NCBI GenBank assembly: GCA_005191425.1
Contig: SUPR01000089.1
Location: 1-14,239 of the forward strand
Source of the DNA: Candidatus Helarchaeota ASGARD archaeon Hel_GB_B
GTDB lineage: Archaea > Asgardarchaeota > Lokiarchaeia > Helarchaeales > HEL-GB-B
Reading direction: 5' to 3'
Length of the DNA: 14,239 nt
The notes under the pieces were generated by a model that saw nothing but the letters and a program-made list of their open reading frames with translations, had not been told where the DNA came from and ran no database searches. A program made the translations under genes and the position numbers. Below are positions 2,041 to 14,238 of the stretch, piece by piece (position 1 is the stretch's first letter; each line of letters opens with the position of its first letter).

Positions 2041-3105
2041 TCATCTATTTTTAAAAAATCTTTTATTTATTTCCGTAAATAAAAATTCAAATGGCGGATA
2101 AAAATGGTATTGAAAATCATGGGGCACAAAATATTGAAAATGAAGAAATCGTTTCCAGAAATTTACTTCTTTCATATAAATCGATTTTTCTTTAATTAAA
2201 TCCAAGATTTCCTGCGACATTTCAGAAGATTCCGGGTGTAATTTATAGGAAACATCAACATTATTAGTATTTATCATTGCATATTTAACAAATTTATATG
2301 GATATCCAAATATTTCCGAGCATAATTTATCCCCATAGACCATATCTTCTGAAATTATTAATTTATTGAAAGGGACAGGTTCTCCAAAGTGAGGTCCAGT
2401 CCCAACACATAAATTTTGACACCCTAAAATATTGATATCAGGAGACATTAACCTTGCTGCTGCAGCTACTGTTTTATCAATCCGATCAAATTTTCGGTGA
2501 TAGATACTTTTTCGTCTCTCTGCAATTGCACCATACATATTTTTCTGGGAGCAGCTAATTCCGCATTCCCAGTGCGGTTTTGGGGGTGCGAAACTAATAA
2601 TTTTTACGTTATCATGGAATAAAATCTTAGGTAATAACAACTTTACGTCCAGACCAATACATTTCATCTCTATTATCCCTACGTAAGAGAGGTTCACAAA
2701 TTTTGTTTTATTTCTATGTAACATATCATAATATCCACGTATTTTTAGCATTTTATCGTCCATTTTATGAGCTCGCATATTAGCTTCACAAACAAAAGGA
2801 ATGCCACCAAGTTCCTTTACTGCGAGAATAATAGCTTCACAAATTTTTGGATCGGAATACGTTGAAGGGATATGGTGTATTCCACCACCAAGATTAATTT
2901 TTATAGCAACATAATCTCCCGGATTAATTATATGATCGGCTTTAATCTTATTAAAACCATCTAAAACTGATTTATAAAAATCATTACCTAAATCTTGTAT
3001 AAGAACTTCGTTATTGTTTTTTAATACATGGTGTTCTTTTTCATAACCAATAAATTTGCCGTCAATTTCTTCTATTTTGTATTTTTCTGTTTCATATTTT
3101 AACAA
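2041..3105 (-). CDS. DUF362 domain-containing protein
   Basis: Motifs VAIKINLGGG...STYSDPKICEAIILAVKELGG.PFVCEA, ISFAPPKPH..CGISCSQKNMYG and ISEDMVYGD match the DUF362 pattern (V.IKPN / T.P..v.a / v.E; PxxKxH; KNxxG; D.va.D). TTG start with GAGGT 9 nt upstream. Confidence 0.8.
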   Translation of the reverse strand: MLKYETEKYKIEEIDGKFIGYEKEHHVLKNNNEVLIQDLGNDFYKSVLDGFNKIKADHIINPGDYVAIKINLGGGIHHIPSTYSDPKICEAIILAVKELGGIPFVCEANMRAHKMDDKMLKIRGYYDMLHRNKTKFVNLSYVGIIEMKCIGLDVKLLLPKILFHDNVKIISFAPPKPHWECGISCSQKNMYGAIAERRKSIYHRKFDRIDKTVAAAARLMSPDINILGCQNLCVGTGPHFGEPVPFNKLIISEDMVYGDKLCSEIFGYPYKFVKYAMINTNNVDVSYKLHPESSEMSQEILDLIKEKSIYMKEVNFWKRFLHFQYFVPHDFQYHFYPPFEFLFTEINKRFFKNR

Positions 3106-3428: not shown

Positions 3429-4163
3429 TCATAATTGATCTTCTTCAGCCGCCCAAGGTCTCTCAAAAATCTTACCAATTTTTAATGCATTAAAAATAAT
3501 TTTATATATGAACGGTAATTTTAATTGCAATTCGTTTTCAAAATCAACTTCACGGACAGCTTCAGCAAATAGGAGTTTTTTTGACCGTATTCCATTGAGC
3601 AGGTCGATTATGGGACGGAGTGCTATGAAAAATCCGATTATTAAAATTTGAGTTTTGTGTTTCATAATTGCCTTTTGAGTCCGTCGCATATTTACTCTTA
3701 TAAACCGATTATTATAAATTGAATGGTAAAAAAATAACCTTGGCCTAGAGTGTTTATTTAACTTAAAAATATTATAAAGAAAAATTTTCCCCAAATTCAT
3801 ATGATCTGGATGAAAATAATAGGTATAATAATATTCAGGGGCAAAAATTGCGTCAAATTTATTTTCTATGATAAATGTATTTAGTTCGTTGATAATCTGA
3901 TTTTGAAATTTAATACCACCGTCCACATAATTGAAAAATTTCACTTTTTTAGATTCTACGCCATGGACAGATGCAGCATCCTTTAACTCATTTTCACGTA
4001 TTTTTGCTAACCATTTACCTTTTAACTTATTATTAACAGTCCCCCATTCTCCACGTGTAGCACTTACTATCAAAATATCATGGATTTTATTTAACCGATA
4101 TATAAATTCTCCAATACATAATTCTAAATCATCTGGATGAGCACTAATAAACAAAATTTTCAA
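3429..4163 (-). CDS. PIG-L/LmbE family N-acetyl deacetylase
   Basis: Motifs ISAHPDDLE, SATRGEWG, IRENELKDAA, NYVDG and HPDH (metal/catalytic motifs of the family), plus KHKTQ. TTG start with GGTG SD 7 nt upstream. Confidence 0.9.
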   Translation of the reverse strand: MKILFISAHPDDLELCIGEFIYRLNKIHDILIVSATRGEWGTVNNKLKGKWLAKIRENELKDAASVHGVESKKVKFFNYVDGGIKFQNQIINELNTFIIENKFDAIFAPEYYYTYYFHPDHMNLGKIFLYNIFKLNKHSRPRLFFYHSIYNNRFIRVNMRRTQKAIMKHKTQILIIGFFIALRPIIDLLNGIRSKKLLFAEAVREVDFENELQLKLPFIYKIIFNALKIGKIFERPWAAEEDQL

Positions 4164-4328: not shown

Positions 4329-4826
4329 ATGACCGAGAAAAAAAAGAAATCGAATACTTGTGAATATAATGCATATTGTAGATATCATTTTAAGGATATA
4401 AATGATATTCCCGATAGTAATGAGCTTTTAAATGCCTTTTTAATAATTCTTGGTGGTATTTATGTGTTTCAAGCAATCACTCAATGGTTCGGTGCATTTT
4501 TACCAGGGTGGATAACTGGGATAACTGCTTATCCAGGGATTTCTGATGTGTTGACCATATTATCTACACTCGGTGGGACATATCAGATTATAATTGGAGC
4601 CGGAGCCCTAATTTCTGGTATTGGCTTGAATGCGGAACAAGAGTGGGCATGGGGAATGGGCTTATTGGTATTAGTATTCATTGCTATAACATCAATTACA
4701 GGGATGATAACTGCAATTACTACCAACACTTGGATTTCATTATTATTCTTTATACAAATAGTTTGCGTAATAGGTAGTGTATTAGGTATTTTCTGGCTAT
4801 TAGGGACTAAAGAGCGATATTATTAA
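4329..4826 (+). CDS. Hypothetical 4-TM membrane protein
   Basis: 165 aa with four hydrophobic segments, a GLNAEQEWAWGMG loop and a charged N-terminus containing C-x5-C-x2-H. No family recognised. Confidence 0.8.
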   Translation: MTEKKKKSNTCEYNAYCRYHFKDINDIPDSNELLNAFLIILGGIYVFQAITQWFGAFLPGWITGITAYPGISDVLTILSTLGGTYQIIIGAGALISGIGLNAEQEWAWGMGLLVLVFIAITSITGMITAITTNTWISLLFFIQIVCVIGSVLGIFWLLGTKERYY

Positions 4827-5126: not shown

Positions 5127-5882
5127 ATGGCAGATTTAAACCAAGATCTATATATGATAATATTTAAAGTGATTGAAGTTTTTGTTTATTTATTTTGTGC
5201 AATTACGATATACCGGAAAAAGAGAGGCTATATTTTAAATAGAACATATTTTATTGCTCTTAGTGGCTGGGTTGTATATATACTTTTAGATGCGATATTA
5301 TTTCCTATTGGACATATCGAGCTATTTAGTTTTGGATATATAAGCGTGAATTCAGGCTTGGCGACGATACCTATGATTGCAAATATTCTCAGAGATATTG
5401 CTGTCGCTGCAGGTGGTGTTTTAGCGTTTGGGTTTTTATATGCAAGTATAATAATTAGGTTTGGAGAAGCTCGAGCTAAAGAGAAGAGGACTTTGCTTAT
5501 AATGTTAGGAGGATATTTTCTTTTAGTAATACCGACCATTATATTTGACCAAATAATTAAAGAGATAAATTTAAATCCAGTAACAGTCCATACACAATTT
5601 AATATTCCATCTGCAATTATGATATTAGCTCAAATAATAGTTTATTTTATTGGTGTCTATGAGTTATTTGTAATTTATCGAAAAATCTCGGATAAAAACG
5701 AAAAACGAAGGATTTTATTTTTTATTTTAGGCGTAATTATCATTGCCATTGGTGTGCTGTTCTTTGTGATTATTGGGCTCGTTAATTTGGAGGGCTCTGC
5801 TTTTATCACAGGTCCTATAGGCCACATAATTTGGATTTTAGCACCTATCTTTATTTTAATAGGTATTAAAAGAACTGAATAG
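5127..5882 (+). CDS. Stand-alone seven-transmembrane protein (HisKA_7TM-like sensor fold, no output domain)
   Basis: 251 aa with seven hydrophobic helices. The basic cytoplasmic loops YRKKRG, EARAKEKR and YRKISDKNEKRR fit N-out/C-in topology. AGGATGA SD upstream. No kinase or other cytoplasmic domain follows. Confidence 0.75.
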   Translation: MADLNQDLYMIIFKVIEVFVYLFCAITIYRKKRGYILNRTYFIALSGWVVYILLDAILFPIGHIELFSFGYISVNSGLATIPMIANILRDIAVAAGGVLAFGFLYASIIIRFGEARAKEKRTLLIMLGGYFLLVIPTIIFDQIIKEINLNPVTVHTQFNIPSAIMILAQIIVYFIGVYELFVIYRKISDKNEKRRILFFILGVIIIAIGVLFFVIIGLVNLEGSAFITGPIGHIIWILAPIFILIGIKRTE

Positions 5883-6164: not shown

Positions 6165-7220
6165 ATGAAAAAGATTAAAATTGGTTTTATAGGGACTGGG
6201 TTGATTGCAAATGTTCATATGCGAAGTTTAATGTCCCTAATAGAAGATGAAATATTTCCAATTGAAGTAATTGCAGCAACAGATGTAGACAAAGATAGAT
6301 TAGAGAAGTTTTGTATAAAAAATAATATTGAAAAAATATGCAATGACCCAATGGATGTTATTAAGGACAAAACTATTAATACGGTGTATATTTGTACTCC
6401 GACAAAGTTTCACAAAGAATATGTATTGAAATTACTAAAAGAAGGTAAAAATATTTTTTGTGAGAAACCGTTAGCAACAAACTTGAATGATGTAAAAGAA
6501 ATGTGTAATGCTGCTAAACATTCAAGTCCTATTTCACAAGTAGGTTTTGTGATACGATATTCGCCTATTTTTGAGTTTCTTAAAGATGAATTATTAAATA
6601 ATGAAGAATTGGGCAAAATGATGACAATAATGTTCAGAAATGATCAGACATTCCCTATTGGAGGTAAATATGGAAGTTTTTGGAGGTCTGATAAAAATGT
6701 TTCAGGTGGAGGTACTTTAATTGAACATTCAATCCATGATATAGATATTTTAATGGCAATTGGTGGTAAATTTAAGTCTGTTTATTGTAATACAAGATAT
6801 TTTTCAAAATATAACGTAGAAGATTTGGGAATATTAAGCTATGAATTAGAAAATAATGTAATAGGTACTTTAACAAGCTGCTGGCATAATATTCCGAGAC
6901 GAGATGAACGACTTATCGAAATATTTTTTGAAAAAGGATGGATAAAAATTGAAATATCAGAAATAATTAAAATTATAACCCGGATCAATAGAAAAACAAA
7001 AAAGTTAGACCCAAATAAAGTCCAAAAACAAATTTGTGAGAAAAAAGGGATTAATCCAAATTATCTGTTGTTTCCGTATTATTATGAAGACCTTGAATTT
7101 ATTCGAGCAGTTTATGAAATGAAAAAATCAAAAACAGGCTTTGAATCGGCATTAAAAGCACATGAGGTAATCGATGCAGCTTATAGATCTGCAAAAGAAG
7201 GTAAGATAATAAAATTGTAA
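6165..7220 (+). CDS. Gfo/Idh/MocA family NAD(P)-dependent oxidoreductase
   Basis: Rossmann motif IGFIGTGLIA, VYICTPTKFH, CEKPLA, QVGFVIRY and WRSDKNVSGGGTLIEHSIHDID. Confidence 0.93.
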   Translation: MKKIKIGFIGTGLIANVHMRSLMSLIEDEIFPIEVIAATDVDKDRLEKFCIKNNIEKICNDPMDVIKDKTINTVYICTPTKFHKEYVLKLLKEGKNIFCEKPLATNLNDVKEMCNAAKHSSPISQVGFVIRYSPIFEFLKDELLNNEELGKMMTIMFRNDQTFPIGGKYGSFWRSDKNVSGGGTLIEHSIHDIDILMAIGGKFKSVYCNTRYFSKYNVEDLGILSYELENNVIGTLTSCWHNIPRRDERLIEIFFEKGWIKIEISEIIKIITRINRKTKKLDPNKVQKQICEKKGINPNYLLFPYYYEDLEFIRAVYEMKKSKTGFESALKAHEVIDAAYRSAKEGKIIKL

Positions 7221-7294: not shown

Positions 7295-8557
7295 TTGCTA
7301 AATATATTGTTAATAAACCCAAATGATATGAAACACCCACCTGTAATTCCAATTGGCTTAGAATATTTAAAAACCTATCTCATGAAAGACGGCTATTCTG
7401 TGAAAATTCTTGATTTATGTTTTGAAACTCGTCCACTGAAAAAATTGCAGAATATTTTACAAGAAAATACCTATGATATCGCAGGGATTACAATCAGGAA
7501 TATAGATTTGAGCTCATATTATAGAAATAAGTTTTATTTACCCAGAATTAAAAAAATTGTAGAAATAATAAAAAATTACGGTATTCCAGTTATATTAGGG
7601 GGAGCTGGATTTACTGCTATGCCCGAGGAAATTTTAAGTTATTTAAGAGCTGATTATGGAATTGTAGGTCCAGGAGAAAAAGCTTTTACAGATTTTTTAG
7701 ACAAATGGAAAAAAAATAAACTAGAAAAAAATATATTAAATGGCTGGCAATTTAACCCGGATTATGATTTAATACATTATCGTGGAAAAGATGTCGATTA
7801 TAAAAAATACATTTCAGATGGGGGTATAGTAGGGTTTGAAACTCATAAAGGATGTTCCGGTTTGTGCCCATATTGTATAGAAGCAAAGAACCCACTCCAT
7901 TTTAAAAAAATACCCAATATAATTGAAGAATTAAAGTTTTTAATAACGAATGGTTTTGACCATTTTCATCTATGTGATTCTGAATTTAATGACGATTTGG
8001 CTTATTCTATAAAATTTTGTGAGAAATTAATAGAAGCAAGGTTAAAATTGAAATGGACATTGTATATGAAACCATCACCTTATAATGAACATTTATTTCG
8101 TTTATTACATGATTCAAATGCCTATCTAATAACATTATCAGTTGATAGCTATGAAAAATTTCATAAATTAAATAATTATTCTTATCAAGATCTTGAAAAC
8201 ATTATAAATTATTGTAAAAAATATAACATACAATTAGATATTGATTTATTATGTGGTTATCCAGGTGAACCAAAAGAATCAATAATTAAAATGATAAAAT
8301 TCTTTAAAGAAACGCGACCAAATAATGTCGGGATCACTTTTTATTACCGAATTTATAATCATACACAACTTGCAAATATTATCAAAAACAATTTTAAATT
8401 TCAAAAAAGATTAACAAGAAAACTTCAAGATCCCGAGGATTTTTTGGAGCCAATTTTTTATTCAAATTACGATATTAAATTTTTTAAAAAATTAATTGAT
8501 AAAGACAAAATATTCAGGATTTCAGGGCTTAAACCAGGTGTGAATTATCAATTATAA
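7295..8557 (+). CDS. Cobalamin-binding radical SAM enzyme (class B methylase), TsrM-like
   Basis: N-terminal B12-binding domain (LLINPN..HPP..P.GL, ILDLCF, GITIRNID, PVILGGAGF..MP, YGIVGPGEK). CxxxCxxC at C187/C191/C194 (7853-7876), then HLCDSEFN, YMKPSPYNE and LLCGYPGE. TTG start. Confidence 0.92.
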   Translation: MLNILLINPNDMKHPPVIPIGLEYLKTYLMKDGYSVKILDLCFETRPLKKLQNILQENTYDIAGITIRNIDLSSYYRNKFYLPRIKKIVEIIKNYGIPVILGGAGFTAMPEEILSYLRADYGIVGPGEKAFTDFLDKWKKNKLEKNILNGWQFNPDYDLIHYRGKDVDYKKYISDGGIVGFETHKGCSGLCPYCIEAKNPLHFKKIPNIIEELKFLITNGFDHFHLCDSEFNDDLAYSIKFCEKLIEARLKLKWTLYMKPSPYNEHLFRLLHDSNAYLITLSVDSYEKFHKLNNYSYQDLENIINYCKKYNIQLDIDLLCGYPGEPKESIIKMIKFFKETRPNNVGITFYYRIYNHTQLANIIKNNFKFQKRLTRKLQDPEDFLEPIFYSNYDIKFFKKLIDKDKIFRISGLKPGVNYQL

Positions 8558-8576: not shown

Positions 8577-9536
8577 CTAAATTTTATACACTTTTTCCCC
8601 ATTTCTTAGAATTTTACCTTCTTTTTCTAATTTTATTAAATGACTTTCAATAATTGCAACTCCTGGAAAGATCTGGATGAGAGAATCATTATAAAATAAT
8701 TTGACCAAATCAATTAATTTTTGTGGAGATTTCTCGAGTTTTTCCATGATTTTCTGGTCTTTTAATAATATTTTATTACGAATTTGAGTGATACGCTCTT
8801 TGATGTTGTAAAATTTATTTCCATGGGCAGGATAGACACTACTTACACTTAATTTTTCAATTTTTTTTAGACTGTCAAGATAACCAATAGCTCCACCCGA
8901 GCTGGGACTGTACCATGCAGTCCCTTTTTCACCAATTAAATCACCAGAAAGGAGAAAATGTCTATCAAGTTCAAAAAAAGAAGTGTGACCGGGAGCATGT
9001 CCAGGAGTAGTCAATATTTTAAATTTATAATCGCCAAAATTTAGTATATCATCATCGTCAAAAGTCTGGATATTGCAATCTTCCGGTAATTGAGACATCG
9101 CACATAGAATTTTGAAATTATCGTTTATATCAGAAATTTTCTTTAAATTATGCTCTGAATCTGAATTGTAGTATTTGGATATTAATGGGACATCAAAATA
9201 TAAATTTAATAAGTTAATATTTTGAGCGATTTTTTTTTCTATTTTATTGATATATATTTTTATATCTGAAAATTCAATATTAAATCTCTTCAAATCCTTA
9301 AATATCCACGAAATTCCACCCATATGGTCAGGGTGCGCATGTGAAATTACTATTGAATGAATATCTTTTATGTCTAAATTATTTATTTTAAATTGTTGAT
9401 ACAATTTACGAATAAATTTTTTAAGACCGCACCCAACATCAATTAAGATTAAGCCTTCACTGTCTTTAATTACAAACACATTAGCTGAAGCAGGCCACAT
9501 AGGTTTATCTGCTTTTAAGAAAAAGAAATTTTGCAT
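8577..9536 (-). CDS. Metallo-beta-lactamase-fold hydrolase with probable C-terminal winged helix
   Basis: Motifs LIDVG, SHAHPDHMGG (HxHxDH), TPGHAPGH, LSGDL and YPAHG. The C-terminal 'LIDLVKLFY...IIESHLIKLEKEGKILRNGEKVYKI' is wHTH-like, as in LACTB2-type enzymes. Confidence 0.92.
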   Translation of the reverse strand: MQNFFFLKADKPMWPASANVFVIKDSEGLILIDVGCGLKKFIRKLYQQFKINNLDIKDIHSIVISHAHPDHMGGISWIFKDLKRFNIEFSDIKIYINKIEKKIAQNINLLNLYFDVPLISKYYNSDSEHNLKKISDINDNFKILCAMSQLPEDCNIQTFDDDDILNFGDYKFKILTTPGHAPGHTSFFELDRHFLLSGDLIGEKGTAWYSPSSGGAIGYLDSLKKIEKLSVSSVYPAHGNKFYNIKERITQIRNKILLKDQKIMEKLEKSPQKLIDLVKLFYNDSLIQIFPGVAIIESHLIKLEKEGKILRNGEKVYKI

Positions 9537-9560
9537 TCCGATTTATCACTTAAAAAAACT

Positions 9561-10667
9561 TTATAATTCTTCTATTTCTTGTAGTTTTTTATTGATAACT
9601 TTTAATGAATGCTCATATAAATATTTTCCTAAATCATGTCTAAAAAGGCTATCTGCAATTGGAGTTATTTCTTTTTTTATAGGTATCAATAAAGAATTGA
9701 ATATTTCACAAAAAATACTCTTCAATTTGTCCGTGAAATTAATACTATAATTATAGATTGGGGTTAATTTAAACGGATTATGAGCATTATTTTTGAAAAA
9801 CAAAATATTCTCAGCGCCAGCCATCCAAGAAGGGCCAAAAAATTGTTCTTTATTAAAATCAATTATAAAGAGGTATTTGTTTTTTAAGATGAACTCTTTA
9901 AATGATTCTATTCCATCTAAGATTATATTTAAAATTTCATTTCCAATTTCTTTAACAGTTCTTTTAGGTATTAACTCAGTCAATTGCTTCAAAATAATAA
10001 ATCCAAACAAATTTTTAAGACAATTTATGGAATAAAGTTTACCGTCCTTATTTTCATCGACAATTTTTTCGAGTCTGGACCTTAAATTACAATGTCTCTC
10101 ATAGAAATTTTCATAAACAGATTGGGATATATATTTATTGAGCAATTCTCTTTTTATCTTTGGAATTTCGTTAAATTTTGTTAACGATGTAAACTCGCTT
10201 GTCATTGATTCTTGATAAATACTTATGTTTAAATCAAGATTTTTAATCCTACTATTAATAAGCTCTAAAGCTTGACCTAAGTCCAAATTTCTGAAACTAC
10301 TTGGATAAATTTTTTCCTGAAATAAATTAGATAAATTATTGGTAAATTCGCTGGATTTTAAGAGTACCCAATCAAAGAAAATAGTTTTAAACTTATGAGG
10401 AGAAATTAAATTATAGCTATTTTTCTCAACATTTTTATTAATTAACCCATTTAGATATAGGATTCTTAATACTTTTGAAGCTTTCATTTTTGTTATGTTT
10501 AAAACTTTAGATAATATACGGTTATCTATAATGTTATAATTATCAAAATTACCATTTAAAACCTCAAAAATAAAACGAGATACCTCATCATAATATTGAA
10601 TAGAATCCTTTTTTGCTTTTAAAAGATCCATAATAATATTAAGCTTTTGAATTTTCTCGGGGTCCAT
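9561..10667 (-). CDS. TrmB-like winged-helix transcriptional regulator, paralog B
   Basis: HTH 'NRILSKVLNITKMKASKVLRILYLNGLI', wing 'NSYNLISP', a long dimerisation-type helix and an alpha/beta C-terminal region. Colinear with the neighbouring 362-aa protein. The CDS is certain; the TrmB-like call is moderate. Confidence 0.7.
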   Translation of the reverse strand: MDPEKIQKLNIIMDLLKAKKDSIQYYDEVSRFIFEVLNGNFDNYNIIDNRILSKVLNITKMKASKVLRILYLNGLINKNVEKNSYNLISPHKFKTIFFDWVLLKSSEFTNNLSNLFQEKIYPSSFRNLDLGQALELINSRIKNLDLNISIYQESMTSEFTSLTKFNEIPKIKRELLNKYISQSVYENFYERHCNLRSRLEKIVDENKDGKLYSINCLKNLFGFIILKQLTELIPKRTVKEIGNEILNIILDGIESFKEFILKNKYLFIIDFNKEQFFGPSWMAGAENILFFKNNAHNPFKLTPIYNYSINFTDKLKSIFCEIFNSLLIPIKKEITPIADSLFRHDLGKYLYEHSLKVINKKLQEIEEL

Positions 10668-10718
10668 TCATAATGTACTTCCAAAATTATTTCTATACAA
10701 TAATTGTTTCTAATCTGT

Positions 10719-11807
10719 TTATTGTTCTTCAATTTCCGAAATTTTATTTGAAATAGTTCTTAAACAGTGATTGTACAATTTCTCTCCTAAATCTTTTTTA
10801 ACAATTATTTCGGACAAATTATCATAAATAGAATATTTAATAAGTAGGTTATTAAAAAATTTATTAAAAATCCTGACCATATTATCACAATAACTATTAC
10901 CAGATGTAATATGTAATTCCATAAGGTCGCTTTCAGAGGTGCTACTATAATACATACGAAATACATAGGGCGGTAAAATAGAAATAGGGCCATTAAAACA
11001 AGTACTATCGAAATCTAATAAGACCATTAATTCATTTTCTAAGAAATAATCTTTAAATTCTATGATAATATTTTTAAATCGTTCTAAATAAGCAATTAAA
11101 ATATGGGACAGGGTTTGCTTTGTATAGCCTTTTGAGATTAAGGTATCGATCATTCTTTGATAATCACGCTTTAGAAATAAAACATAGAAAAATTTTCCTT
11201 CAGAATTAGAGTTATGAATTTTTTCCAGTCTAGATTTTATTATTTGAAATCTTTTATATCTATTTTTATAGTTAATTTTGAACATAATTGAATTATAAGC
11301 CTTTTTTTCAAAATTGGGTAATTTAGACCATTCAATTGGAGTTGTTAAAGCTGATACTGGTGATTCTTGGTAAACATTTGTATTTAAATTAAGAAATTTA
11401 AGTTTATTATTGAAAAATGCCAAACCATCAAGTGGATTGAGTTTAATATAAAAATTTGGGTATATATTTTTTCCGATTATTGATTTTATTGTATTAGCAG
11501 CTGATTTCATGTGTGTCTCAATTGAATTTATAAAAATATTCTCAAATTCATTCTGGTCAATAAGATAATATAGATTTTTATTAGGAGAACCTTTTATGAG
11601 ATGAAATTTTTTTAATTTTCTTAAAATAGAGCTTGCTTTTACTTTAGAAATGTTTAGTGTCCTGGCAATTATTTCATCATTTAAGAATTTGTAATCATTA
11701 TACTCGCCATCTAAATATTTAGTAATAAAGGAACAAATATCTTGATAATTACCAATTCTTAACATCTTCAAAAAAGTGTAAACCGCAGTTTTCTTCTTTT
11801 TTTCCAT
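10719..11807 (-). CDS. TrmB-like winged-helix transcriptional regulator, paralog A
   Basis: HTH 'DEIIARTLNISKVKASSILRKLKKFHLI', wing 'NLYYLID' and a following long helix. Shares blocks with paralog B over its full length. Confidence 0.7.
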   Translation of the reverse strand: MEKKKKTAVYTFLKMLRIGNYQDICSFITKYLDGEYNDYKFLNDEIIARTLNISKVKASSILRKLKKFHLIKGSPNKNLYYLIDQNEFENIFINSIETHMKSAANTIKSIIGKNIYPNFYIKLNPLDGLAFFNNKLKFLNLNTNVYQESPVSALTTPIEWSKLPNFEKKAYNSIMFKINYKNRYKRFQIIKSRLEKIHNSNSEGKFFYVLFLKRDYQRMIDTLISKGYTKQTLSHILIAYLERFKNIIIEFKDYFLENELMVLLDFDSTCFNGPISILPPYVFRMYYSSTSESDLMELHITSGNSYCDNMVRIFNKFFNNLLIKYSIYDNLSEIIVKKDLGEKLYNHCLRTISNKISEIEEQ

Positions 11808-11958
11808 CGATCAACCCATTTGAATTAGTTATAATTTATAGATAGTAATTTATCATCATATAGGTATATAAATTGAATCTTTTTATAAAATTTAAAAATT
11901 AAAACTAAAATTAATCTGAACTATTATAGAGAATATTTATCAAAATAGTGTTGCTAAA
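11808..11958. promoter_or_regulatory. Divergent promoter region between the regulator operon and the GNAT operon
   Basis: 151-bp gap. Perfect palindrome TTTTATAAAA at 11881-11890, almost centred. TATATAAA at 11865-11872. Direct repeat TAATTTAT at 11832-11839 and 11846-11853. Confidence 0.5.
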
Positions 11959-12390
11959 ATGAATATTAAACATGTAAAAGTAAAAGATGCCCCGGTTATT
12001 ACGCACATTGCAGAAAATTGCGCACCATTATTAAGGGCCAGTGTAGAAGGTACTTATGAATTTCTTGCTCGTTGTTTTTCAAATACTTTTTTCGTTTGTG
12101 AAACAGATAATAAATTGATTGGATATATAGTAGGGTTTCCAAACACCGCCATAAAAGGTGAATTCTGGATTTACCAGGTAGGTGTTTTAAAAGATTACAG
12201 AGGTAAAGGAGTTGGTTCTAAACTATTTGAAGCTCTTTTTGACCAGGTTAAAAAGGAAAATTATCTACGAATAAGGTCTCATTATATCTTTACAAATAAA
12301 CATTCAGCAAATTTACATGCAAAATTTGGAATGAAAGTTTGTGGTCAAGATGATAGAGGATATTTTGTTGAAATAAATTTAAATGAATAA
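11959..12390 (+). CDS. GNAT family N-acetyltransferase (EctA-like features)
   Basis: Acetyl-CoA motif A 'IYQVGVLKDYRGKGVGSKLF', motif B 'NKHSANLHAKFGM' and 'FFVCETDNKLIGYIVG'. The segment 'TYEFLARCFSNTFFV' resembles the EctA N-terminal region as I recall it. Confidence 0.88.
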   Translation: MNIKHVKVKDAPVITHIAENCAPLLRASVEGTYEFLARCFSNTFFVCETDNKLIGYIVGFPNTAIKGEFWIYQVGVLKDYRGKGVGSKLFEALFDQVKKENYLRIRSHYIFTNKHSANLHAKFGMKVCGQDDRGYFVEINLNE

Positions 12391-12451
12391 AAATTTAAAA
12401 AAAACCTAAAAAACCGTTATTAACATAAATGACAAAAAATTGGGAAGAATT

Positions 12452-13795
12452 ATGGAAAATGAAATTTTGTTTAAAACAACTCTTTTATTTTGGAGATTAT
12501 ATGAAACTTATTTAAGCTATTCTAATGATGAAATGCTTAAAGTTCTCCAAAAAAGCAAATATAAACTCTACGACAAATATTTTTTTGTAAATAATAAAGG
12601 TGAAAAAATCCCTTTAAAATGGATAGCCACTACAGGAAAGTTTTTTGTCCCTCATTGTTTTGAATTAGAAGTCCTAGAATTTAAATGTCGAGACCACGAA
12701 TCAGAAATTTATGGAAAAATACAAATTGATTGTCATATATTTCCTGAAGGGGTATTATTATTACAATCTAAATTGGATTTTGAAAATTTCAATTCAGTAA
12801 ATCAACTCATTACAGCTTCAATACCAACAAATATAATTTTATCAAATGGTAAAGATATGGCACAAGAACTTGACGACTTAGCAGATGATATTATTAATTA
12901 TTTACAATCTAAAATTAATAGGAAAAAGAAAATTTTAGGTGAGAAACCCAAACCATGGCACCACAATTGGGTCTGGTGGGAATCTAAACCAAAAGTTCCG
13001 ATAAATGAATTTGATATTAATGGCAAACATTTTAAATATGCGTTAGGGATGTGTACTCGTTCCGATAAGTGGAATGTTTTAAATCCAGAAAATTACGTCA
13101 CCATTATAGAAGACATTTTTAATTTAAGTCCATATTCAGGTAATTGCGTCTATCTAACACATCCAGGTAATTGTATTATACCCAGTAAAGATTTCTTAGA
13201 CCCAAAATCTATTAAAAATACTATTGTTGATGTAATTTTTGCTGCAGAAATAGGTAATGTCCAGAGATATTTGATATTAAACCATTTACAAGATATTAAT
13301 TTTAAGTCTCTCGAAATTCAGGAATTATTATATAAATATTCTCAAGATAAATTAAAAACTAAAGAACTTATTAACAAACTAGAAGAAACTGAGCAAATGT
13401 TAAATGAGATAGTCCTTGAAATTAATAGAAACTTACAAATTACAAGGACACCAAGATTGATTTTTACAAGCGTTTTTAAAACTAAGTTGATGAAACAGAT
13501 GATACACGTATTACATGGAGACCTGTTTTTGAATAGCCTAGAACTAATTATTGACAAAATGAAGGATGCAATTGACAGACAGAGAAATATAATTACAATG
13601 AAAGTTAATGCAGAAGAAAATAGCTTTTTAAGAAACCTTCAAATCGTATTTATTATTGGCCTAATTGCTCAGATGGTAACATTGTTCTATATAGATACTA
13701 CCACTGGTTTTAATCTTGAGGGAGGTGCCTTTTTCATTGTTATTTCAATAATTCTCTCAATATTAATATTATACGTATTAAGGCGCTTTAAATGA
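12452..13795 (+). CDS. CorA-like architecture membrane protein (soluble alpha/beta domain, long helices, two C-terminal TM helices)
   Basis: The ORF track starts at TTG 12440; ATG 12452 has GGGAAG upstream and is preferred. Heptad-like helices (LQDINFKSLEIQELL...KLEETEQMLNEIVLEI; LELIIDKMKDAIDRQRNIITMK) run into TM1 'LQIVFIIGLIAQMVTLFYI' and TM2 'GGAFFIVISIILSILILYVL', ending RRFK. There is no canonical GMN motif. Confidence 0.6.
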   Translation: MENEILFKTTLLFWRLYETYLSYSNDEMLKVLQKSKYKLYDKYFFVNNKGEKIPLKWIATTGKFFVPHCFELEVLEFKCRDHESEIYGKIQIDCHIFPEGVLLLQSKLDFENFNSVNQLITASIPTNIILSNGKDMAQELDDLADDIINYLQSKINRKKKILGEKPKPWHHNWVWWESKPKVPINEFDINGKHFKYALGMCTRSDKWNVLNPENYVTIIEDIFNLSPYSGNCVYLTHPGNCIIPSKDFLDPKSIKNTIVDVIFAAEIGNVQRYLILNHLQDINFKSLEIQELLYKYSQDKLKTKELINKLEETEQMLNEIVLEINRNLQITRTPRLIFTSVFKTKLMKQMIHVLHGDLFLNSLELIIDKMKDAIDRQRNIITMKVNAEENSFLRNLQIVFIIGLIAQMVTLFYIDTTTGFNLEGGAFFIVISIILSILILYVLRRFK

Positions 13796-14055: not shown

Positions 14056-14238
14056 TCATTTTTTCTTTCTTTTTAATTTCCTTTTTACTCTTTTCATTCT
14101 TTTTTTCTTAGTCTTTTTGGTCATAGCAGGGTGTCTGTGTTTTCCCATTATAATCGCCTGATTTTTAATAGGTTTCCATTTATCAATTATTAACTTAATT
14201 TGTCCGGAAAAATTACGATTATACCAACAAATTTTATA
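14056..14238 (-). CDS. Lys/Arg-rich ORF at the right edge: either the C-terminus of a truncated gene or a 30-aa basic peptide starting at ATG 14148
   Basis: Not in the ORF track. The frame is open from 14238 to TGA at 14056: YKICWYNRNFSGQIKLIIDKWKPIKNQAII-MGKHRHPAMTKKTKKKRMKRVKRKLKRKKK*. AGGCG lies 6 nt upstream of ATG 14148. Confidence 0.6.
   Translation of the reverse strand, partial: YKICWYNRNFSGQIKLIIDKWKPIKNQAIIMGKHRHPAMTKKTKKKRMKRVKRKLKRKKK

Follow-up and report, generated by a model that had tools for sequence, protein, structure and literature searches.

A divergent five-gene block in a Helarchaeales archaeon: a conserved GNAT and membrane-protein pair probably juxtaposed with a metallo-hydrolase and two TrmB-like regulators

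The stretch of DNA analyzed here (the window) is the entire 14,239-bp contig SUPR01000089.1 (C173) of Candidatus Helarchaeota archaeon Hel_GB_B, a metagenome-assembled genome (G000) of 3.54 Mb in 182 contigs with approximately 27% G+C and 93.7% completeness. The closest database proteins bear Helarchaeota, Hodarchaeota, Lokiarchaeota and Promethearchaeota names, which marks the organism as an Asgard archaeon. A block of five genes occupies its right-hand part. Three of them are on the minus strand and encode a metallo-beta-lactamase (MBL)-fold metallo-hydrolase of 319 amino acids (aa; 8577-9536) and two paralogous regulators, RegA (368 aa; 9561-10667) and RegB (362 aa; 10719-11807). The other two are on the plus strand and encode a small GNAT N-acetyltransferase of 143 aa (11959-12390) and an Asgard-restricted membrane protein of 447 aa (12452-13795). 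The two groups face away from each other across an AT-rich region of 151 bp (11808-11958), the presumed site of both promoters and any operator. A preliminary description of this DNA had presented the block as a self-contained divergent unit, and its five open reading frames (ORFs), their strands and the gaps between them (24, 51, 151 and 49-61 bp) were exactly reproduced when checked against the ORF list. The membrane-protein gene more likely starts at ATG 12452 than at the alternative TTG 12440, because the family alignment supports the former, as does a database record of 447 aa starting MENEI. Gene identities, intact catalytic motifs, folds, paralogy and the distribution of linkage were demonstrated as follows.

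The small GNAT matched the Pfam family Acetyltransf_1 (PF00583) with an E-value of 3.7e-16 and 59.9 bits against a cut-off of 20.7. Its acetyl-CoA motif was intact (R81-G-K-G84-V-G86, or R-x-x-G-x-G at residues 81-86), confirming that the gene had been named correctly; R81, G84 and G86 were invariant in seven orthologs. These orthologs were 56-76% identical with a mean column identity of 70%. The closest solved relatives were YqjY (1mk4) and Naa50, and matches to EctA- and RimI-like families were below cut-off. No LuxI autoinducer synthase was among the 9 Pfam families (E up to 0.01) or the 8 NCBIfam families that the protein matched.

The membrane protein matched no Pfam family. It combines a very strongly conserved cytoplasmic domain with a coiled-coil stalk and a C-terminal membrane hairpin of two helices; hydrophobic segments were present only at approximately residues 400-418 and 426-447. 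In the structural model (451 residues modeled), whose mean predicted local distance difference test score (pLDDT) of 68.7 was moderate, a helix at 349-417 formed a long stalk into the first transmembrane helix (TM1) and was followed by a second helix at 426-449. An alignment of 29 homologs (A1) revealed the invariant motifs PLKWIA, PWHH.W, R[ST]DKW, LSPY..C.Y, DP..KNT..DV, GNVQR and HLQ in the cytoplasmic part. The family profile found 21 matches among 1.84 billion representative proteins, and the protein was present in 71 of the 400 Asgard genomes surveyed, in eight families.

The preliminary description had called this protein a CorA-like channel. Its general layout does resemble that of the CorA Mg2+/Co2+ channels, including the CRISPR-associated effectors (PF01544), in that a large N-terminal portion on the cytoplasmic side leads through a long helix to TM1, which a short loop joins to a second transmembrane helix (TM2) and a basic C-terminus. 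However, PF01544 did not match the membrane protein at E-values up to 0.01, nor any of the 29 family members at E-values up to 1. A six-frame scan with PF01544 found nothing in the whole of G000, the block itself included, although 13 of the 14 control genomes gave a match. The TM1-TM2 loop, where a GMN-type motif would be expected in a CorA protein, was variable over the 29 homologs, and "GFN" occurred solely in the window sequence and its nearest relatives. No CorA chain appeared among the top Foldseek and VIA-align matches listed for the model (pLDDT 68.7), lists that were dominated by a helical hairpin at residues 274-341, nor among the Atlas shape matches. The CorA-like channel was thus supported neither by profile nor by loop, and no fold search listed a CorA. 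On a separate Lokiarchaeote contig (L019:12726-13793), a genuine CorA, two MscS-type channels and a CitMHS transporter were seen a few kb 3' of a membrane-protein homolog.

Other comparisons gave a single lead on the fold of the membrane protein. Foldseek found no match to the model in the PDB below an E-value of 1e-3, the wide VIA-align search matched only the generic hairpin 274-341, and family profiles run against PDB sequences returned noise only. The Atlas shape search, in which predicted models were compared with predicted models, recovered an MJ0711_N/"putative DUF155" cluster with template modeling scores of 0.54/0.59 over 299 residues, and a eukaryotic DUF155 protein with a score of 0.44. 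The same MJ0711_N/DUF155 group was the top lead from sequence features, a weak one with a score of 0.82. The RMND1-type MJ0711_N/DUF155 proteins (PF27233, PF02582) were thus the best shape match to the model, although the membrane protein had no sequence-level match to PF02582; none of the 29 members matched DUF155 (PF02582) at E-values up to 1, and the family profile found no DUF155-type relatives among the 1.84 billion proteins. The predicted likeness is best taken as a lead and not as family membership. To our knowledge, the function of DUF155 is itself poorly known. Nothing relevant was found in the literature linking DUF155 or RMND1 with CorA.

Thirty-four loci of the membrane protein were looked at, of which 32 could be assessed for a GNAT neighbor. 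A GNAT gene lay within 1.3 kb of the membrane-protein gene in 30 of the 32. Eight loci, spread over several families and including one Lokiarchaeote and one Hodarchaeote record, had the small GNAT (143 aa) as the neighbor, in the same orientation as the membrane gene and 30-130 bp ahead of it. In 22 loci it was a non-orthologous GNAT of approximately 200-228 aa, mostly divergent upstream and with 22% identity to the small GNAT. Both deep clades of the maximum-likelihood tree of the membrane protein held both GNAT types, and well-supported branches required at least two changes of the small-GNAT label, a count that is not a formal test since kin share labels. If the two genes had no functional connection, such repeated replacement of the GNAT at one position would be difficult to account for. 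The small GNAT and the membrane protein were adjacent in every genome holding both where the contigs permitted a check, and at least five other loci carried the GNAT-membrane pair with neither the MBL nor the regulators. Judged by this comparison of sequences, the conserved module is the GNAT plus the membrane protein. A predicted complex of the GNAT with the membrane protein (residues 1-395) scored 0.00, which was uninformative on binding either way.

The surroundings of the pair varied among lineages. In the layout of the large f4 clade (genera g7 and g10), the order was a PlsC-like acyltransferase (PF01553), a divergent GNAT of approximately 210 aa, the membrane protein, and a C45/Ntn autoproteolytic acyltransferase-hydrolase (NF040521, E-value 2.5e-44). 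This layout was seen at L028:13-4092 and at 17 or more similar loci (L029, L032, L034-L045, L048, L049), and in most f4 loci the C45/Ntn gene came directly after the membrane gene, in the same direction. A neighborhood so rich in acyl transfer might reflect a chemistry of N-acyl amines or lipids. The wider contexts of the membrane-protein homologs consisted of housekeeping genes, including those for ribosomal proteins, NDK, IF-2 and tRNA synthetases. In L018, L019 and L020, the small ORFs that follow the membrane gene matched no Pfam family and were not mutually homologous, and no third conserved member was found there. In L020, from a distant lineage, a 262-aa MBL protein (Lactamase_B/Anti-Pycsar_Apyc1; 12381-13169) was encoded 3 kb 3' of the membrane-protein homolog; it was non-orthologous to the window MBL, and its proximity is probably coincidental.

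The MBL protein matched Pfam Lactamase_B (PF00753) with an E-value of 1e-21 and 78 bits (cut-off 22.7). All metal ligands of its di-metal site were present, namely H66-x-H68-x-D70-H71 (the HxHxDH motif, residues 66-71), H180 and H238, and the call of an MBL hydrolase was therefore upheld. The closest solved relative was human LACTB2 (PDB 4ad9), with an E-value of 1.3e-18 over residues 159-314, the C-terminal extra domain included. The window protein shares with LACTB2-type hydrolases the catalytic core, with HxHxDH intact, and the C-terminal extra domain; however, its similarity to them is low, and it reached no NCBIfam equivalog cut-off. All lactonase and beta-lactamase equivalogs in NCBIfam scored far under their cut-offs, by an order of magnitude. 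For the acyl-homoserine lactone (AHL)-lactonase equivalogs, the scores against the cut-offs were 25.6 vs. 375 bits (AiiA), 31.8 vs. 360 (AidB), 24.7 vs. 425 (YtnP) and 27.7 vs. 390 (AttM). Orthologs of the MBL protein were found in 15 of the 400 genomes. In the 13 other genomes with an ortholog, no neighbor was common beyond the genus level, and none was a GNAT, membrane-protein or regulator gene.

RegA and RegB were 30% identical over 345 aa (E-value 1e-42), confirming that they are paralogs as first described. Neither matched any family in Pfam, the TrmB family PF01978 included, or in NCBIfam. A search of the word index with RegB alone recovered only RegB, and a family profile was used instead. 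An alignment of 13 family sequences (A2) yielded a fold model with a pLDDT of 88.6 and a predicted template modeling score of 0.77, in which an N-terminal winged helix-turn-helix (wHTH) was followed by a dimerization-type linker helix and a phospholipase D (PLD)-fold domain. With this model, Foldseek placed TrmBL2 first (5bpd, E-value 8e-7, probability 1.0) and gave TrmB a probability of 0.99. The family profile run against PDB sequences returned only marginal wHTH matches (E-values 0.011-0.6), with domains of the MarR/ZitR/RbkR type matched at residues ~37-82 (E-values 0.01-0.3). Proteins of the TrmB family are built from an N-terminal wHTH and a dimerization helix, and their C-terminal domain binds effectors (PMC4158304). 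Since the confident fold model has this architecture, the label "regulator" is supported, and the fold supports RegA and RegB as predicted DNA-binding regulators of the TrmB/TrmBL2 type. Ligand binding by the modeled proteins is possible. The catalytic PLD motif HxK(x)4D (HKD) was found in neither protein, indicating that their PLD-fold domain has no catalytic function, like that of TrmB. Only L70, Y85, Y151, E153, F323 and G347 were invariant columns in alignment A2.

The regulators share with TrmB and TrmBL2 (3qph, 2f5t, 5bpd; PF01978) the wHTH, the dimerization helix and the PLD-like first subdomain of the C-terminal domain, but they differ in several respects. They are unmatched by PF01978 or any other family model and are, at 362-368 aa, approximately 100 aa longer than TrmBL2. 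The predicted model ends in helices 309-367, a feature seen at the level of the whole model and not of a residue-by-residue comparison with TrmB, and these extra C-terminal helices stand where TrmB has its sugar-binding second beta subdomain (TrmBL2 is without that subdomain). In addition, RegA and RegB are fast-diverging tandem paralogs confined to a few Helarchaeales-type genomes. Their profile matched 3 of the 400 Asgard genomes (G000, G001 and G003), and in a database of 5.8 billion proteins it matched only proteins named as Helarchaeota or Helarchaeales. Across the syntenic relatives described below, RegA was 35-42% and RegB 39-44% identical, as against 61-76% for the MBL, GNAT and membrane proteins in the same genome pairs, indicating that the regulators evolve faster, at roughly twice the rate of their neighbors. 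G003 contained five regulator paralogs on contigs C87 and C131, a tandem array of four genes and a singleton, with no other gene of the block nearby. Three of the four copies in the array (L015:2190-7278 in G003:C87) were nearly identical over long stretches, and the sequences suggest that these copies arose through tandem duplication not long ago. Immediately upstream of the array was a gene of the AsnC HTH type. A third regulator paralog was syntenic in L017:5178-7878 (G000:C116) and L014:273-3429 (G001:C116), directly 3' of an acyl-CoA dehydrogenase gene, and a second B12/radical-SAM gene of G000 was near this paralog.

The order of all five genes recurred only in G001, a genome of the same genus, and in one Joint Genome Institute contig (L018), whose membrane protein was 72% identical. 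In both relatives synteny ran beyond the block, with GFO/IDH/MocA and radical-SAM genes on the left (the radical-SAM gene kept in L018 and absent at the corresponding position in G001) and an ABC ATPase gene on the right. The conservation of the block in these close relatives is therefore indistinguishable from general collinearity, and the preliminary claim that the block is self-contained did not hold, as synteny continued into the flanks in both. In G003 the homologs were on separate contigs: the MBL (52% identical) on C83, the regulators on C87 and C131, and the GNAT (65%) on C58. The preliminary description had named scattered, unlinked homologs, together with regulators that do not bind the shared promoter, as the outcome that would speak against a unit. 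Such scatter was largely found, in the contigs of G003, in the neighbors of the MBL orthologs and in the restriction of the regulators to 3 of 400 genomes, while linkage was retained in the three close relatives.

The block was also said to be closed by convergent genes at both ends. On the left this was correct, where the MBL gene converges with a B12-binding radical-SAM gene (7295-8557, plus strand) whose top NCBIfam matches, both below cut-off, were a lipid-biosynthesis ladder type and a TsrM-like tryptophan methyltransferase. On the right, only an ORF of 30 aa (or 60 aa, open-ended) was present at 14056-14148 on the minus strand, 91 bp short of the contig end, and the downstream genes of both syntenic relatives were co-directional with the end of the block, not convergent. 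Because of this short ORF and the orientation in the relatives, closure is valid on one side only. More than half of the residues of the 30-aa ORF are Lys or Arg, as in an eL41-like basic peptide. Further upstream in the window were genes for an NTP_transf_2 nucleotidyltransferase (1230-1931), a DUF362 protein (2041-3105) and a PIG-L/BshB-like deacetylase (3429-4163), two ORFs that matched no family (4329-4826 and 5127-5882), and the GFO/IDH/MocA oxidoreductase (6165-7220) that is in synteny with the MBL end of the block both in G001 and in L018.

When the divergent spacers of the three genomes were aligned, one short common block was seen at approximately 11866-11880. The motif derived from it showed no enrichment in the window, with 6 matches against an expected 4.5. 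Inverted repeats in these AT-rich spacers were imperfect and not conserved, and no operator could be named from them. A sigma-70 promoter scan gave 51 sites, at the level of the shuffled background (41.6 ± 6.4), and the sigma-70 model is inapplicable to archaeal promoters.

Taken together, these results make it probable that three modules, each with its own evolutionary history, came to lie side by side in this lineage, and that the block is not a dedicated five-gene system. The GNAT and membrane-protein genes, 30-60 bp apart, would form a two-gene operon, presumably co-transcribed, whose products act jointly at the membrane. There the GNAT may modify an amine substrate with an acetyl or acyl group, and the membrane protein could be its obligate partner, whether as scaffold or sensor for the substrate, as exporter or as the target. 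RegA and RegB, from their position, may bind the 151-bp spacer, regulate their own expression and control the divergent GNAT operon in the lineage of the window. The LACTB2-like MBL gene, 24 bp 3' of the regulators, is probably co-transcribed with them. Three observations weigh against this interpretation. Four genomes (G002, G003, G005 and G006) had the small GNAT but no membrane protein, showing that the GNAT does not require the pairing and that the tie is asymmetric. The combination of a GNAT, a membrane protein and a hydrolase is repeated in the f4 clade, and in the window the MBL might be the counterpart of the C45/Ntn enzyme. Finally, the block was whole in three genomes even though the flanks had changed, with the radical-SAM gene lost in G001 and a tRNA-synthetase gene inserted in L018; an intact block with altered flanks hints at some cohesion.

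This last observation also favors the strongest alternative, which we consider appreciably less likely, that of a five-gene regulon in this Helarchaeales lineage for the acyl modification or detoxification of small molecules. The GNAT would acylate, the MBL would hydrolyze the product or a related ester or amide, the membrane protein would deal with it at the membrane, and the TrmB-like pair would sense it through the PLD-fold domains and control both operons. The arrangement is a classic divergent layout of regulator and target, effectors are bound by the C-terminal domains of the TrmB family (PMC4158304), and this reading stays alive because a hydrolase, the C45 Ntn enzyme (2.5e-44) 3' of the f4 membrane gene, stands beside the membrane gene in another clade. 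However, all three genomes with the block are close relatives whose synteny exceeds it, the homologs are scattered in G003, the MBL orthologs elsewhere have unrelated neighbors, and the GNAT-membrane pair does without the MBL and the regulators in at least five loci. The regulator model also ends in helices rather than in the sugar-binding second subdomain of TrmB, and no ligand site was identifiable in it. Of the small-molecule module proposed in the preliminary description, the link between GNAT and membrane protein thus gained comparative support, while linkage of the MBL and the regulators did not extend beyond close relatives.

A more specific version of the pair's role is doubtful, with a clearly smaller chance of being correct than the regulon. 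According to it, the GNAT and the membrane protein of approximately 450 aa would constitute an Asgard-only, membrane-anchored system for acyl or acetyl transfer. By fold, its membrane protein would be remotely related to the DUF155/RMND1 type, a kinship no longer recognizable by sequence, and its dependence on a GNAT partner would be strong enough for two unrelated GNAT types to have been recruited repeatedly. The PlsC-like and C45 Ntn neighbors in f4 would point to the metabolism of N-acyl amines or aminolipids, and in the lineage of the window the system would have come under a newly expanded pair of TrmB-like regulators.

Two other readings offered in the preliminary description fared poorly. 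A make/sense/destroy circuit, in which the GNAT, the regulators and the MBL would act like a LuxI synthase, its receptor and an AiiA lactonase, draws only on general fold classes, GNAT-fold and MBL-fold enzymes next to regulators, and is very improbable. It fails on family membership: the GNAT matches acetyltransferase families, with YqjY and Naa50 nearest and no autoinducer-synthase family among its Pfam or NCBIfam matches, and the MBL is closest to LACTB2, with AHL-lactonase equivalogs at 25-32 bits against cut-offs of 360-425 (AiiA, 25.6 against 375). The GNAT and the MBL are also unlinked outside close relatives. A search of PADLOC-DB 2.0 with the five block proteins returned nothing significant; the best matches were Csa3 (E-value 0.016, in the wHTH region) and LmuA (1.5e-4, in the generic MBL core), and there was none for the membrane protein or the GNAT. 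A conflict or defense module with the membrane protein as a CorA-like effector gated by a second messenger is scarcely credible, since the gross topology (soluble N-terminal domain, long stalk helix, two C-terminal TM helices) and the fast-evolving, tandemly duplicated regulators that could speak for it are set against the absence of a PF01544 match in G000, of a GMN loop and of CorA among the top PDB and Atlas structural matches, and against homolog contexts that were housekeeping with no CRISPR/cas genes nearby.

The observations in the preliminary description were thus partly confirmed: they were largely correct and the regulator call was good, but the CorA label and the self-contained framing were unsupported; its interpretation of the block was partly supported. 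Labeling the block a new five-gene system would direct effort at a unit that the comparative data do not support. The membrane-protein family, by contrast, is well delimited, apparently confined to Asgard archaea and without a Pfam model, and its near-constant GNAT neighbor provides a handle for a first functional experiment. The second yield is a fast-evolving, Pfam-invisible branch of TrmB/TrmBL2-like proteins in a few Helarchaeales-type genomes. Both families modestly extend the known set of genes specific to Asgard archaea, and neither amounts to a new kind of system.

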